Shown: positions 12,496 to 20,000 of the stretch, one piece after another
Numbering within the stretch: position 1 is the first letter of the stretch
How the letters are laid out: each line of letters starts with the position of its first letter
Source: Vezdaea acicularis
Lineage: Eukaryota
DNA length: 20,000 nucleotides
NCBI GenBank assembly: GCA_026025075.1
Contig: JAPEUI010000007.1
Location: 245,830 to 265,829 of the forward strand
Direction of reading: 5' to 3'
Notes under the pieces: model-generated
The model's database searches: none
What the model saw: the letters and a program-made list of their open reading frames with translations, nothing else
What the model was told of the DNA's origin: nothing
Translations under genes and position numbers: made by a program

Positions 12496-14300
12496 TCATA
12501 TGGGTCGCTCAAGCCCAAGCGTCTTCCAAGTTGCTTCCATATCTTCGACAAGCTGAAGGAAATTATCGTCCATGATCAGGGCGCAGAGCTCTTTGTTGAG
12601 GAGAGAGAGCCTCTCGTTTTCAGGTAATGCAGCATAGGCTCCTAATTGATCTCGTTCTAATTTCATGGCCATTTCTGTGTTTTGGCTCTGTAACCAGCGT
12701 TGCAGATCTTTCTGGTAGAGACTTGAATTAGCTGCAAAATCTGGCTTATGCGTTGCGGCTAAGGCTGAAATCCTCCGCGGCTCGATTCTTATAGAGTCGG
12801 GAAGCTGTATAGGCTCCTCCATAGCGGACGCTTGGCGTTTCTTGGACTTTGGAGCCGGTTGCTCGAGGGACTCTGGAGATGAGTTTCCTAGAAGGCCTAA
12901 ATTGCCAGTAGGCTTCTGGCTATTCTCTGAAGTGAATCTATATATGGACCTAGGAGAAGATGTGATGCCACCAAAGCCTGATTTAGATGAAGCCGAGGTA
13001 ATTACGGAGAGACTTCCCACATTCTGGCCCGACGTCTGCGAACCTGCATATTCTCTTTGCGATTCTGTTTGATTTTGCGAAAAGTATGATGACGCCTGAC
13101 CATTTTGGGGGGATTTTCTGCTTGGGGAAGACAACAATTGCGACTGAAGATTTGACGATGATAGATCGCGACGTTGATAGGCTTCAGGCTGCTGGGATAG
13201 AGACGTTTTGTTCGTTATCGGATCCTTAGACTTCTTCGCAAACTTCGTTGGAGGTCTCATGGTTGGCGAAGAGTATCTAAATGGCGAGGTCATCCGTGCT
13301 GATGAGGCTGGAAGGCGGGACAAGAATTGAGAGACACTTAGTTCGTCGTTGCTGTAAGAACCAGCCGATTTAACATGGCTCAGCGCCTGGAGTTCATTAT
13401 CACGCCCTGGATTCTGAAGGATAGTTCCCAAAACTGATTTGTCAGGTTGCGTAGGTGAGGACGAGGAGGGGAGAGAAGCAGGGTAAGCGCATTGCCCGGC
13501 TGAAAAGCTGGGAAGCTTGAAAGCTTTAGAGTAAACGTTGCCGGTAATCTGAGCATCGCTGACTTTGACTTGATCTTCAATAATTTTAAGGAGGGTTCGC
13601 GGTATGTTATCCCGTTGGGTCGAAGAGACTACGTCAAGATGCCCTCCAGATGAGAATAGTGGTCGAGATGAATCAGACTGAGAGCTTCCGAGATTGCGTT
13701 GCAGATTGTTACGTTCCTGGATTGGAAAGTCATGGTCTCTAAGTATAGCAATAGAAGAAAAGTAGTCGGCCGGATTTTGGAAGCGAACTTGAATCTGCCT
13801 TGTCTTCAAATGTTGTTAGAAAGGTATAAGACATGCCAGATGCATGAATTGTACCTGGCCATTGTACTGCTTGTATTGGATAGCCAGCTTCATGGTCTGT
13901 GCATTCACTAGAGCACCCAGAGGAAGCATTTTTGGATCACAAGAAGAAAGGCGTATTCCACCAAGTGAACTCCTTGCCACAGCAACAGCGCCATAAAGGT
14001 CGAAATTTTCCTTCGGGTGTCAGTACTTCATTGGAATGAAGAAGTTGTATAAATTAAAGCCATGTGTATGGACTAACTAACCAGAGTGTTAGTTCCGTAT
14101 AACACCTTCAAAATTGGCTTTGAGAGCATTCTGCCTCCAACCCCTGGAACCTGGAGATCCTCGAACACCAACCAGAGGGCATTGTCCCGCTGTTCAATAT
14201 GAGCAAATTGGACTGGATCGGTGCCACTTTTAGCGAAAGAAAATCGTTGTAAAGGAAAATAGACGTGGTTAGCCTTGATTGCAGGAGGCAAAGCATCCAT
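12496..14300 (-). CDS. REC114: Probable meiotic recombination protein Rec114/Rec7 (~560 aa); exons 14300-14082, 14010-13855, 13803-12496
   Basis: Introns 14081-14011 (GTTAGT..TACTGAC..AAG) and 13854-13804 (GTACAA..TCTAAC..AAG) join in frame. The product has an N-terminal PH-like domain (FPLQRFSF, LWLVF, LKVLYG..LENFDL, LAIQY, RQIQVRFQNPADY), a long S/P/Q-rich disordered linker and a C-terminal helix (ELCALIMDDNFLQLVEDMEATW), which is the Rec114 architecture. The start codon is uncertain; an upstream exon is possible. Confidence 0.72.
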
Positions 14301-14681
14301 TTCTACAGTCACTGGGGGTGGTTGTTGGCCACTTCCACTCGAGTATCTCCTTACTGATAATAATATATGTTCGATTCATAAGAAGATCAAGGATCAAAAC
14401 GCCCTGCTTAAATAATGGTAGGTTCGTATTTAGTCATAATAGATGGGATAGGCTCGGAAGAGAATAGGACACCATACGGAGCAGTGTGCATGTTGAAAGA
14501 GACATCCTGCGCAAATGCCACTCCGTACCATAACGATAACCGTAGGCTCTAGAGAACGATCAGAAGATCTTGACCGCCTGTAAGCTAGATCTTTCCTAAG
14601 AAGCGGAACCCACTGAAGTCCACAACTGCTAGTTATTGTGACATGAAAGGAAGGCTCAAGCCCACTAGCGCGCTTTCCTCG

Positions 14682-14826
14682 TGTAGAATTTTGCATGTTC
14701 TGCCTTGAGGGTCGCCGTAATACGACAGGGATTGACGCGACGTTCGGATTTGTACGTACCGCTTAGTCAGGCTCGCCTATAGAGGCGAGCCCCCGTAACC
14801 GCGAGCTCAGCGGCTTCGCAACTACA
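14682..14826 (+). repeat. Putative 5' LTR (right end well supported, left end tentative)
   Basis: Ends in ..GCAACTACA (14826) directly before the PBS; TGTAG at 14682 is the inverse of CTACA. Alternative TG starts at 14751 (TGTACG) and 14579 (TGTAAG). Contains hairpin GGCTCGCCT-ATAG-AGGCGAGCC (14770-14791). Confidence 0.5.
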
Positions 14827-14827
14827 T

Positions 14828-14834
14828 TGGTAGC
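14828..14834 (+). other. Primer-binding site, tRNA-iMet type
   Basis: TGGTAGC one base after the LTR-terminal CA; complementary to the GCUACCA 3' end of fungal initiator tRNA-Met, the same core as Ty1/Ty3 PBSs. Confidence 0.7.
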
Positions 14835-14944
14835 AACACCCCTATTTGAGTTTTAGGACCACAAACCCCTATAAACACATCAAATACGATCAGATCCTCT
14901 AGACATAGTAGCGAACGCCCCGTTGTAGCCATCAACGTACTCAA

Positions 14945-15922
14945 ATGGCATCGTCGGACGGTAATCTTGGCATCCCTAACGTGTTTGGCTTTGGTGGAAG
15001 AGCTTTCAGTACCCCGTCAACACCAGAGCCACCCATTGACACTCCGTCAACGCCTAATATGACTTCAAACAACGGAAATACACTAGATACGGCCACTGTC
15101 ATTGAGCTTCTCAATGCATCAGGCAACAAGCCCAAGTTGCAGGCCCCTGAAAAGTTTGACGGAGCCAAAAGGGATACTGACGGAGCCAATAACTGGCTCT
15201 TTAAGATGGAACGGTATCTTCTGCTAGCACAGATAGACTCTAAGCTAAAAGTCATCTATGCAGCACAATATCTTACGGACAATGCCCAGTTCTGGTACCG
15301 GACCATAGCTGGCAATCAGTTTCAAAGTCCGTCAGATAACTGGATTGAGTTTAAGGAGACATTCAAGGCCCGTTTTGAAGACGTCAATAGCGACAACAAG
15401 ATGCTTGAGCAGTTCTTTACGATAACGCAAGCTGGTACACGCTCACGGAGCTTACGGGAGTATATTGAAACCTTCACTAGGTTATGGTCAGTGGTTCATA
15501 CCAACATATCTGAACCAGTTGCTGTATCACGTTTTGTACAAGGACTGCAGCCTCGTACAAGAATAGATGTGCAACGTGCCCAACCAGTGACACTGTCAGC
15601 AGCTATACAGCTGGCGGACGCAGCTGAAGGCATTAACATTCAGACGTTTCAGCCCCGTCAAGCCAATAACCGATATCAGAAGCAACCAAGAAGATCCGAC
15701 AGTCCTGGTTTTGGTCCGCCAACACCATATTATGGTCCGGAACCTATGGATCTATCAATGATGACAGGTCCAATACGCCCTTCCATGAAGACGGACCAAC
15801 GACGAAAGGGGTTGTGCTTTATGTGCAACAAGCCAGGACATATTGCTCGGAACTGTCCGACAGGGAGAGTTGGTGAACGGACTAACTCTAGGCCACAAGG
15901 GCCAAAAAACTACAGGACTTAG
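14945..15922 (+). CDS. gag: Retrotransposon Gag (capsid plus CCHC nucleocapsid), 325 aa
   Basis: PEKFDG...[33 protein letters not shown] and zinc knuckle [14 protein letters not shown]. Confidence 0.95.
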
Positions 15923-15959
15923 ATAAGCTGGCGCTCTTATCTAAGTCAAGTATGGCGCC
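15904..15959 (+). other. Programmed -1 ribosomal frameshift signal
   Basis: A_AAA_AAC (15904-15910) in gag phase, 5-nt spacer, then perfect 12-bp stem GACTTAGATAAG (15916-15927)/CTTATCTAAGTC (15936-15947). pol is in the -1 frame and is open only from 15892. Confidence 0.9.
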
Positions 15960-18900
15960 TTCTCTACAGGCCATATCTACAGAGAGTACCCGCAACTTAG
16001 AGAAGGAAGTTGACGGAAGGATAGAAATCTCCGGAGCTTGCGGCAGGCCTCTGGCGGTGTCCGATTCCGCCAGACAACGGGAGATTGAAGAACAGAATAG
16101 AAAGACCCATGGGGAGACGATAGAGGAGCTTGATCAACTCCTAAGCATAAGAGACAGAGCAGACGCTGATCTGTTAGTATTTAACGGCAATGTGAACGGA
16201 CATACCGTAAGAATACTAGCAGATACAGGAGCGTCAAGACGGTACATCAGACGGAGCACAAGTGATGCTGCCGGACTGAAGATTATGCCTTTAAAGGGGC
16301 ATAAAGGGGTTAGGCTGCCGGACAGCAGCCAATTGCAGATTTACGGGACCGTAAGCTGCACAGTTACTATCCAAACCTTTACAGATAAAGCTACATTTAT
16401 TGTCATTGATCTGGCGCAATATGATATCATTCTAGGCATGGACTTCTTCCGCCAATATCAACCAACTATTGACTATAAAGCTTGCGGACTCATCATTCAG
16501 CAGAACAACTATGAGCATGCTCTCCATGACTCATTACCACATCCGTTAACATTAGAGTATAATCATATACCAGCTAGCGGATGGCGGAACGTCAGACGGA
16601 CGTTACAACATAAGGGACAAGGAGTTCTATATATGCTAATAGACGGAGACACGTCCGACAAGCTGACGGACAAGTCCGGCAAGGACATTGAGTCATTGAA
16701 GGAAGAGTTGAGACCGTTAATGAAAGTATTCCGTACTGAACTACCTACAGGGGTAGGGCCAAAGCGTTATGTGGATCATCACATTGATACGGGTGATGCA
16801 CGTCCTATCAATAGGAGTGCCTATACTTTAACTCCACAGCAGTTAGAGGAACAGGCCCGACAGATCCGTTACCTAGAAGAACGGGACCTTATCCGTCCAT
16901 CTCATTCACCTTGGGGTTCTCCAGTACTCTTTGTCAAGAAGAAAGATGATTCATGGCGGATGTGTGTTGATTACCGGGCATTAAACAATGTGACCGTCAA
17001 GAACGGCTATCCGTTACCAAAGATACAAGATTGTTTGGATCAAATAGGGTCCGCTAAAGTGTTTTCAAAGGTTGATCTACTGTCAGGCTACTGGCAAATC
17101 CGTGTGGCGGATGCTGATATACCAAAGACAGCCTTCAATACCCGTATTGGCAAGTTTGAGTTCCGTGTACTACCGTTTGGATTAACCAATGCTCCGGCAA
17201 CCTTTCAGACGCTTATGAATGACATTTTACGGTCATGTCTAGACAAATTTGTGGTTGTCTATCTAGATGACATCCTCATCTATAGTCAAGATGAAAAGGG
17301 GCATATGGAACATCTCAAGATTGTATTGCAGATCTTGTTAGAAAACAACCTGTTTGCACGGCCAGACAAGTGCTCCTTCTTTCAAACGGAAGTGGACTTT
17401 TGCGGACACATTGTCGGAGCTGGCGTAGTCCGTATGGATCCGCATAAGCTAGCAGCCATCAAAGATTGGCCAACTCCTAGGACAGTTCATCATGTCCGTC
17501 AATTTGTAGGCTTATGCTCATACTATCGGAGGTTTATTAAGGAGTTTGCACGCATTGCAGCACCAATGCATGAGCTGCTTAAGCTGCCGGAAGCAACTCG
17601 CGGACATAAACATCAGCCTATAGTATGGAATGCCAAATGCCAGATGAGTTTCCGTCAACTAAAGGAATGCCTCACCGTCGCGCCAGTATTGCAACAACCG
17701 GATGTTAAAAGAGCTTTTATCATTGAAACGGATGCATCAGACTATGCATGCGGAGCTACATTGTTGCAGACAAACTTGGCTGACGGACGGGAACATCCGG
17801 TTGCTTTTGAAAGCCGTAAGTTCAATCCGGCAGAAAGCCGTTATCCAACACATGAACAGGAGCTATTGGCAATCAAGCAAGCTTTACGTGCTTGGCGTTG
17901 TTACATTGAGAACGGACATACAACTATTGTACGGACAGATCATGAAGGGTTACAGTACATGAAGACAACCCGTAAGCCTTCCAAACGTCTAGGCCGGTGG
18001 ATAGAAGAGTTTGAGGAGTACAATCTAAAGATAATCCACAAATCCGGAAAGCTAATGACGGTGCCGGATGCACTATCAAGACGTCCTGACTACTTGCATA
18101 ACATTGAACTTAATGTTTTGGAATGGACGGACTATATGACGGACTATCTAGAGTCCGGCAAGCTATCAGGTGACAAGAACATTGATCATATGCTCCGTTC
18201 TAGAGCACATGAGTTTACAATAGCTATGGAAACTCTTTGTCACAGAGATTCACCAGAGTCGGACTGGATTGACTACTTACCCCTATGGGCAAGAGCTGAT
18301 CTATTGGACCGTCTGCATAAGGACTATGGTCACAGCAATGAGTTGACATTGCTAAACCTAGTTAGTGCACGGGGATGGTGGCCAACAATGCGCAAAGATA
18401 TAAGGCATTATGTACGGCACTGTACGGACTGTCAAATAGCAGGACGGTCCCGTCAGGGGTTGCACACTGATGTTCAGCATCCGTCACATCAATGGAGTGG
18501 ACGGATTGAACCGTTTGACCGTTGGGGATTAGATCTCATTGGCAGACTCCCTAAAACACCGTCCGGCAACCGCTGGATCATTACAGCAGTTGACTATGCA
18601 ACCCGTTGGCCAGTAGCAAAAGCAGTGCCGGATGCTACAGCAGAAGCCCTAGCTGAGTTCATTCATGACAAACTCTATATGCATTACGGATCTCCAAAAG
18701 AGATTGTGACGGACCAAGGACGGAACCTATGGGCTCCGGCAATGAGCCAATTCTTGTCTAAACTAAATGTCAAGCATAGGGGAACAACTCCATATCATCC
18801 ACGGACAAACGGAGCAGTTGAAAGTCTTAACGGAACGCTAGGTAACATGCTGACAAAATACCTGCTCAACCGGCCACGTTCTCATTGGGACCGGTATTTG

Positions 18901-19509
18901 GATCAGGCATTGTTTGCAGCACGTATCCGTACGCATAGTACTACCCGTTTCTCACCATTCTATATGCTTTACGGACGCCAACCTAGGTTACCAATGGACG
19001 AGAATGGTATAACTCCACTGACGGACAATGTACGGGAGGACAAGCTTCCGTTATTTGAAACACTCCGTATGGAAGCTTTACGGAACACAGAAGAACGTGC
19101 TTTAAAGAACAAGCAAGCATGGGACGCAGCTATTACCCCTATTCAGTACAAACCGGATGACTATGTACTGGTACGGGCTGAGAATCAGCTGAAGTGGCAA
19201 GGTAAATGGTTTGGACCCTATCGAGTCCGTCGGGCTATGCCATTGAATACATATGAGCTAGAGACTCCTCAGAAGAAGAAGTTAGAGCTCCTTGTAGGTG
19301 GTGACCGGCTAAAACAGGCTCGAGTTGAGGGAAGAGTAACTCGCGGATGGCGGATGCCCAAGGGACCAGGCCGTAAACGGATTTACGGTAGTGAAAACAA
19401 TCCGAACCACGCGGTGGCAGCTCCGTTAGACCAGTTTGAAGCTCTACCGGAAGAAGAAGGACTGCAGGAAGACAGTCCAATAGAACCGCAGTTGTGGCAA
19501 CTGCTATAA
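15910..19509 (+). CDS. pol: Retrotransposon Pol (aspartic protease, reverse transcriptase, RNase H, integrase), expressed as Gag-Pol by frameshift
   Basis: ILADTGAS (DTG 16222-16230); [41 protein letters not shown] (17260-17271); ETDASDY, EQELLAI, VRTDH, DALSR; H-x4-H...C-x2-C, GLDLIG, TDQG, TNGAVE, GPY motif. No stops or frameshifts. Confidence 0.97.
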
Positions 19510-19570
19510 TACATTGACGGGCAGGCCGTCCCACCTGACGGACCATACTTTCTACTGACGGACGCTGGAA

Positions 19571-19748
19571 CATCCGTCAAACACTTGAGTCATCCGACAA
19601 GCACTTATTTCATTTGTAAATACCATAAAACGCAAAAAACATTCATTATTGACTATCTACTTGTTATGTCCAGGCTAAAAACCGTCCGCAAGGCTCTGAC
19701 GGACGTAAAACTGCCTATCATCCATCCGTCAATGCACCCATCCGTCAA
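19571..19748 (+). repeat. Short direct repeats CATCCG(T/A)CAA between pol and the antisense ORF
   Basis: Copies at 19571-19580, 19591-19600 (20-bp period, degenerate third copy at 19611), 19723-19732 and 19739-19748. Confidence 0.75.
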
Positions 19749-20000
19749 CTACTCCAACATAGCCACCAGATCATCCATCCTCTGCTCCATCATGTCCGCA
19801 TTTTGCCGCATCTCGGCAGCCAAGCTACGGACCTCCCTGGCAAGCACCAGCACAGGGGGCTCATTCAGGGGCTGGAACCCCCGCTGGCGAGCCGGAGCCC
19901 CAGGCGCTACAGCGGCAGCCTGAGGCCCGGTAGCCCTGACCACGGGCCTGGAAGCCGGAGGCCGGACAGCCCGGGCCACAGCCCTAGCCACGGCCACGGC
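19749..20000 (-). CDS. 3' end of an antisense ORF downstream of pol (Ala/Arg/Pro-rich, C-terminal amphipathic or coiled-coil helix); 5' end outside window
   Basis: Frame is open from 20000 to TAG at 19749-19751, with a sharp rise in GC. Protein ends ...AVARAVARAVR...VLVLAREVRSLAAEMRQNADMMEQRMDDLVAMLE*. Confidence 0.55.
   Translation of the reverse strand, partial: AVAVARAVARAVRPPASRPVVRATGPQAAAVAPGAPARQRGFQPLNEPPVLVLAREVRSLAAEMRQNADMMEQRMDDLVAMLE

Follow-up and report, generated by a model that had tools for sequence, protein, structure and literature searches.

Extra genes in antisense are widespread among the LTR retrotransposons of plants, and for none of them has a function been proven. 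In the passages of PMC7264820 and PMC11963269 cited here, such antisense ORFs (aORFs) lie between pol and the 3′ LTR, as in maize Grande (gene23), rice RIRE2, Retand and Phaseolus PvRetro13. The post-pol regions of these plant elements are 3–6.5 kb long, and copy conservation and transcription have been shown for some. The encoded proteins are orphan or family-restricted, are often found beside tandem repeats, and have been proposed to play a nuclear or regulatory role (PMC7264820, PMC11963269). Retand (Silene/plant) carries antisense ORFs with a TRP28 domain (PF04195) together with tandem repeats in its post-pol region, where such repeats are described as common (PMC11963269).

A non-plant case is the antisense gene brtn of Boty, from Botrytis/Sclerotinia (Zhao 2011, Virology 417:248, as cited in PMC7264820 and PMC8365987). 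The passages cited from these two sources place brtn antisense between pol and the 3′ LTR of a fungal Ty3/gypsy element and give its function as not known. Boty was the only fungal antisense post-pol gene found in the literature searched. The parts of PMC11963269 and PMC7264820 drawn on here also name a retroviral factor encoded in antisense, HBZ of HTLV-1.

The locus analysed here resembles Boty as a Pezizomycotina Ty3/gypsy element with an antisense extra ORF after pol. It is set beside Boty by description: 83 codons of the ORF are visible, the LTR is 76 bp long, and pol lacks a chromodomain by Pfam. The original prediction had pointed to plant antisense ORFs as the known parallel, which stands; that background was incomplete, since brtn had already been described in a fungus (PMC7264820, PMC8365987). 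We put the chance at roughly one in two that the last 252 bases of the window, the whole 20-kb stretch of DNA that was analysed, are the 3′ end of a real minus-strand protein-coding ORF, in a segment of the element between pol and an unseen 3′ LTR.

An intact Ty3/gypsy element in fungal DNA

The DNA of the window is fungal. The host ORFs include a COQ5 methyltransferase, whose best named relatives are from Pezizomycotina, at 61–66% identity; it has no close relative with a name. These Pezizomycotina relatives belong to Chaetothyriales (Cladophialophora, Capronia, Exophiala) and lichen-forming Lecanoromycetes. From 14751 on, the window holds an intact Ty3/gypsy element, gag then pol. Its features, and those of the segment behind pol, are as follows.

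14751..14826, plus strand: 5′ LTR, 76 bp, TGT...ACA (contig loose ends in runs X1, X6 and X7; X5 record 9; X7 depth)
14828..14842, plus strand: primer-binding-site-like stretch that starts with TGG, one base behind the LTR (read from the sequence)
14945..15922, plus strand: gag, 325 aa (Pfam Ty3_capsid 4.6e-17, Retrotrans_gag 1.7e-16, zf-CCHC 4e-05)
15952..19509, plus strand: pol, 1185 aa, with protease, RT, RNase H and integrase (Pfam RVP_2, RVT_1 4.5e-38, RT_RNaseH 6e-34, Integrase_H2C2, rve)
19510..19748, no strand: post-pol spacer with an AT-rich trough and six TGACGGA copies, three forward and three reverse (composition and motif positions)
19749..20000, minus strand: candidate antisense ORF, last 83 codons and TAG stop (open frame, periodicity, best of six frames)
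19857..20000, minus strand: basic low-complexity part of the candidate product, rich in Ala/Arg/Pro/Val, residues 1–48 of the visible part (composition, repeat, low pLDDT)
19755..19856, minus strand: predicted C-terminal amphipathic helix, residues 49–82 of the visible part, about 4.5 heptads (AlphaFold2 and heptad statistics)

Gag joins a capsid domain to a CCHC knuckle, and pol follows the Ty3/gypsy order of protease, RT, RNase H and integrase. By Pfam, RVP_2 spans residues 73–182, RVT_1 328–488, RT_RNaseH 584–690, Integrase_H2C2 781–830 and rve 854–950. No Chromo family is among the pol matches at E<=0.01, so the chromodomain that marks chromoviruses at the integrase C-terminus was not found; the pol tail behind the GPY/F-like part is about 60 residues long. 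These domains bear out the original call of a fungal Ty3/gypsy element outside the chromoviruses. The pol stop codon, TAA, is taken as real because an ENA assembly carries an identical 1185-aa pol protein (P0005). After P0005, the next relatives reach only 52–53% identity, in the integrase end. From 15892 on, the pol frame is already open and so overlaps the last part of gag, which is read in another frame and stops at 15920–15922; therefore frameshifting, rather than an ATG of its own at 15952, could make pol.

Contigs of four public runs (X1, X5, X6 and X7) were compared with 14000–20000. Those of X1, X6 and X7 diverge from the window before 14751 and again behind 14826–14830, in agreement with the LTR end predicted at 14826. 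X5 record 9 matches exactly 14751–14826, with unlike letters on both sides. Depth in X7 is 78–138 at 14790–14803 versus about 6.5 in the element interior. Together, the contig ends, the X5 record and the X7 depth give an LTR of only 76 bp. The high X7 depth at the LTR points to numerous solo LTRs or LTR-like copies in the organism behind this run. One base behind the LTR, we take the TGG-starting stretch to be primer-binding-like, presumably pairing with the 3′ end of a tRNA. No tRNA gene lies within the 20-kb window.

Loose contig ends in three runs delimit the 5′ LTR, and the 3′ end of the element lies beyond 20000. A repeat search found no second LTR copy in the window, and blastn (word 7) of the last 600 bases against 13801–14945 found none either, returning chance words of 7–14 nt only. 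No purine run of at least 8 nt, and so no polypurine tract (PPT), occurs in 19510–20000. It had been noted from the letters that neither a PPT nor a copy of the 5′ LTR follows pol within 490 nt, and the three scans agree.

The spacer behind pol is 239 nt long, which is the distance from pol to the candidate ORF. GC falls to 0.32 in its trough (19584–19682), and it has no 3-base periodicity (χ2 7.8, P=0.25). Its RNA fold has a z-score of −2.88, matched by 1 of 200 shuffles, and the folding of 19510–19760 runs through pairing of the inverted TGACGGA/TCCGTCA copies. The X5 and X7 copies have four additional letters at 19733–19734.

The spacer motif belongs to a word, TGNCGGA/TCCGNCA, that is a hallmark of the element. 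It occurs about 8 times per kb and is roughly 16-fold over-represented in the element (15043–19747). In 5 kb of element there are 19 copies of TCCGTCA, 11 of TCCGGCA and 8 of TCCGCCA; the 14.75 kb of host DNA has 1, 2 and 1. Both orientations of the word occur, and within pol its CGGA/TCCG core is found in each of the three codon phases. This core holds half of the element CpGs (99/202) versus 13% in host DNA; overall CpG observed/expected is alike (0.80 in the element, 0.86 in the host). Among the 31 relatives of pol described below, the word reaches 0–1.5 per kb. CpGs preceded by T or followed by A (NCGA/TCGN) account for 12% of those in the element (14946–19509) versus 55% in host DNA. The contexts that are scarce here resemble those targeted by TCG-directed hypermutation in some fungi.

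The antisense frame and its coding signal

The minus-strand frame converges on pol and ends in a TAG at 19751–19749. In the other direction it runs off the end of the window, and its start lies beyond 20000. An 83-codon GC-rich minus-strand ORF converging on pol was part of the original prediction, and the open frame of 19749–20000 was reproduced. GC is 0.67 in 19741–20000 versus 0.46 in the spacer (19510–19748) and 0.47 in gag-pol. Within the ORF it is 0.59 at 19749–19880 and 0.78 at 19881–20000.

Openness by itself is no evidence of coding, because among 5000 Markov-simulated 252-mers of the same composition 65% contain one or more fully open frames; a single simulated frame is open in 7.5% of cases. 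In the real stretch two of six are open, the minus frame and the codon-aligned plus-strand frame, and the pol frame is also open, to 19923; two plus-strand frames are thus likewise long and open, and three open frames overlap. These counts favour the most serious rival, in which the segment is a non-coding, GC-rich and partly repeat-derived 3′ internal region of the element, and both the open frame and the helix are accidents of composition. We regard this explanation as rather doubtful.

The 3-base periodicity of 19749–20000 gives a χ2 of 40.5, which none of 2000 shuffles reaches. It runs in one phase across both halves, all 252 nt. The half nearer the stop codon (19749–19880), which encodes the helix, has no tandem repeat and yet gives 31.5 (0 of 2000 shuffles), and the other half (19881–20000) gives 22.8 (P=0.0005). 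Four intergenic control pieces gave 3.3–9.2, and four gag/pol pieces of equal length 6.1–21.4. Compared with all 236 segments of 252 nt scored along the 20 kb, the candidate ORF takes second place, and the remaining 11 of the first 12 begin in long host ORFs. Its one-phase periodicity is thus on a par with that of the strongest host exons, which argues against a non-coding segment. It is near the stop codon that both periodicity and high GC set in.

The base pattern also singles out the minus strand. We scored all six frames by position-specific base log-odds against matrices from known coding DNA in the window, a test that picks the right frame for 32 of the 40 pieces of known coding DNA tried, training pieces included. 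The minus frame is the best of the six, with r=0.66 against the host matrix and 0.69 against that of the element. The codon-aligned plus frame gives 0.31/0.41, and the remaining four at most 0.12. What the minus frame matches is the known coding pattern of rich G and poor T at the first codon position and poor G at the second, so its base pattern by frame fits coding.

Homology and codon usage point the other way. A phmmer search with the 83 residues returned no match at E<=0.001 among 1.84 billion protein representatives. A word-indexed search among longer proteins confirmed no relative in 5220 candidates, and none of 594 pattern matches in metagenomes was confirmed. Pfam has no family at E<=10 for the visible residues; no usable match came from NCBIfam, PDB (best E-value 0.16) or the ESM Atlas. 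An exact 24-base word of the ORF has no match in genome contigs and none in viral contigs. Codon usage is unlike that of the host and of gag-pol, and every one of the six frames has a negative score in bits per codon; the minus frame is best under the host table and the +2 frame under the element table. Fourfold sites carry G or C in 36 of 54 cases in the ORF versus 201 of 527 in pol, and A-ending codons number 1 of 54 versus 192 of 527. This third-position composition favours the non-coding explanation, and from it we conclude that the segment has not had a long shared mutational history with pol.

A 12-bp unit in 2.5 copies (19966–19995) lies in the low-complexity part. This unit, or degenerate trinucleotide repeats in the low-complexity half, could give periodicity without coding, and tandem repeats are a common trait of the Retand post-pol region in the portion of PMC11963269 cited. 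Set against the aORF-3R class, which is antisense and protein-coding, the frame is antisense and appears coding by periodicity and frame test; homology and codon usage do not argue for it.

The predicted product has two parts. AlphaFold2, run on the single sequence, gives a helix at residues 49–82 with pLDDT 93–98 and low confidence elsewhere; the block-mean pLDDT of residues 1–50 is 48–74. Two prolines, P48-P49, interrupt the sequence ahead of the helix. Core positions are L53, V57, L60, M64, N67, M71, R74, L78 and M81. Against three nulls of 600 sequences each, the heptad score lies above 99.7% of simulated open frames, 99.0% of sequences with all residues shuffled and 98.3% of those in which the C-terminal 43 residues were shuffled; the P values are 0.003, 0.010 and 0.017, and the test is post hoc. 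That the ORF ends in a heptad-like helix was first proposed from the letters, and both the pLDDT and the heptad score agree. From the model we infer that the helix may self-associate as a coiled coil. Heptad values of this order (P=0.003–0.017) speak against an accident of composition. RNA folding of the segment is ordinary on both strands (z-scores −1.5 and −1.3), so a non-coding role as structured RNA is not indicated, and with only two sub-threshold matches in Rfam that reading of the GC-rich part was rejected.

The segment as part of the element

X1 record 8, of 602 letters with 3 differences, spans 19415–20000 and continues beyond the window. X6 record 23, from another study, is a 97.8% identical copy of 18220–19783 and reaches 35 nt past 19749. 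The junction between spacer and ORF (19748|19749) is therefore bridged by contigs from two other public runs. At the opposite end, an X1 host-flank contig with 1 difference in 747 nt (99.9% identical) leaves the window at 14750. Beyond that point it has 85 unlike letters, and the first 14 of them are absent from the whole window. We read this as an empty site, where the insertion is apparently absent, and is consistent with insertion polymorphism and a recently active element. Word depth in X1 is 4.5 in the host flank, 9.5 in record 8 and about 21 in the interior, although contig depth does not equal copy number. The bridging contigs, the empty site and the depths therefore suggest that the stretch of pol tail, spacer and ORF is present at other loci. 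The segment probably travels with the element, and the claim that the ORF is carried inside it is to that degree upheld.

Several observations on these contigs stand beside this. X1 contigs break between 19403 and 19415, in the pol tail, and word depth drops there from 22.2 to 9.5, as if the 3′ region of the window were common to only some copies. The X5 and X6 contigs end at 19754 and 19783 and so leave 19829–20000 uncovered, a gap that counts neither way; X7 depth there is 2.3. In X6 and X7 the host flank (14000–14700) matches the window at about 90% identity (70 differences in 701 nt and 33 in 269), and the element copies of these runs (14797–19783) do so at about 98%. The element is thus far more conserved than the intergenic DNA beside it, which selection, a recent spread or transfer between relatives could each explain.

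The rival here is that the copy is truncated near 19748 and that what follows is foreign to it, whether the tail of a host gene, a piece of a second mobile element that is nested or adjacent, or the product of a join made in assembly. We consider this unlikely. The composition does break sharply near 19749, the element word is absent past 19747, and the periodicity is closer to that of host exons than to that of gag-pol. In addition, the window has no 3′ LTR, relatives lack a post-pol segment, and the X1 contig ending at 19403 has a word depth of 22.2 versus 9.5 for the one starting at 19415. Against foreign origin, X1 record 8 and X6 record 23 cross the very junction, and the X1 flank exits at 14750. 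A host gene would need a 3′ UTR of its own, but the last element motif, TCCGTCA at 19741–19747, lies one base from the stop codon of the ORF; since this leaves no room for such a UTR, a host gene is unlikely. The GC of 0.67 and GC3 of 0.73 are far from those of the host ORFs in the window. Finally, a transposon or host protein usually has relatives, and this one has none among the 1.84 billion representatives.

The CpGs had also been read as a signature shared with the element. The hand count was exact, with 15 of the 17 CpGs in 19741–20000 in CCG/CGG context, but the sharing is weak, as TGNCGGA/TCCGNCA is absent from the ORF. It is missing from the LTR and the 5′ leader as well. Its core, CGGA/TCCG, accounts for 5 of the 16 CpGs in the ORF (P=0.02 versus composition, 0.04 versus the host rate).

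Relatives of the element were sought through pol. Metagenome contigs hold 31 loci, the best 64% identical over 1095 bp and the others 28–49%; none of five candidates in viral contigs was confirmed. We examined 13 of the 31 and found an LTR pair in 6. Four of these, distant relatives that also have long matches to pol (L002–L005), have the 3′ LTR within about 120 nt behind pol, with no minus-strand ORF of at least 70 codons in between. Because these four lack one, the post-pol segment appears peculiar to the lineage of this element.

If the segment is coding, it could still be read on the plus strand, as a spliced sense third ORF in the codon-aligned frame 19653–20000+, with the minus frame as its shadow. 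This is very improbable. The frame is fully open with the same periodicity, and its product has a high hydrophobic moment; T at the first codon position occurs once in 44 codons of 19749–19880, hence the lack of stops. Yet it has no ATG, its product is rich in His, Pro, Ser and Gly with prolines within the periodic part, and C makes up 59% of its first positions, at odds with known coding DNA. It falls well below the minus frame in the frame test (0.31/0.41 versus 0.66/0.69), its 5′ part (19653–19748) lies in the spacer, which is without 3-base periodicity, and Pfam and NCBIfam found nothing. Read-through of the pol TAA into 137 open codons (19510–19923) was rejected, as the identical 1185-aa protein exists, query coverage in 89 of 91 relatives does not pass the pol stop, the two that exceed it (P0072 and P0021) do not match the read-through product significantly (E 0.18 and 0.89), and Pfam found nothing.

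Expression, product and related systems

If the minus-strand ORF is a gene, a promoter beyond 20000 would drive its transcript toward pol. This promoter is more likely to be internal than in the LTR; with an LTR of only 76 bp, the LTR as promoter of the ORF is not favoured. Translation would end at 19751–19749 and the transcript in the AT-rich trough of the spacer, making pol and the ORF a convergent pair with a common 239-nt 3′ region. We infer that the spacer, 19510–19748, serves as the shared 3′ untranslated region of the two convergent genes. The 11 public runs listed as carrying matching sequence include no RNA run.

By analogy with the plant aORFs, Boty brtn and HTLV-1 HBZ, the product might combine a basic disordered part with a self-associating coiled-coil helix and act in the nucleus on expression or copy number of the element, which is speculative. 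The antisense RNA might also pair with the genomic RNA, as the same analogies would allow. A role in anti-silencing or targeting, also raised in the original prediction, is speculation.

The likeness to plant aORFs lies in the position behind pol and the antisense orientation. Unlike in Retand, neither TRP28 (PF04195) nor any other Pfam domain is detected at E<=10 in the visible 83 residues; the N-terminal part beyond the window may still carry one.

HBZ has a bZIP architecture, and its gene lies on the minus strand near the 3′ end of a retroelement, as the candidate ORF would. Both would have a heptad (leucine-zipper-like) helix after basic residues, though this is an analogy only. Unlike HBZ, the candidate matches no bZIP family at E<=10 in Pfam. 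The heptad helix is present, but P48-P49 part it from the basic region, so the two are not contiguous as in a basic leucine zipper. Host kingdom and element family differ too.

The boldest reading of the locus would make it a young, still mobile, non-chromovirus Ty3/gypsy element with 76-bp LTRs, from an under-sampled Pezizomycotina lineage. It would carry an orphan antisense gene of foreign composition, either acquired or arisen de novo from GC-rich sequence, with a minus-strand promoter of its own. The product, a basic disordered region followed by a C-terminal coiled coil, would regulate the element, as a fungal functional analogue of retroviral antisense factors such as HBZ, unrelated in sequence to Boty brtn and the plant aORFs. 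This full picture is possible rather than probable.

If there is no gene here, the locus is a warning that GC-rich post-pol segments yield long open frames by chance. If the gene is real, it is a further case of a kind already known from plants and Boty, and its candidate roles are transcription regulator, copy-number control and source of antisense RNA. Should the full picture prove true, the element would offer a small, tractable system, with 76-bp LTRs, a compact spacer and an intact copy that is apparently insertion-polymorphic between samples. It would also be a second, unrelated fungal example, which would mean that such antisense genes arise repeatedly.
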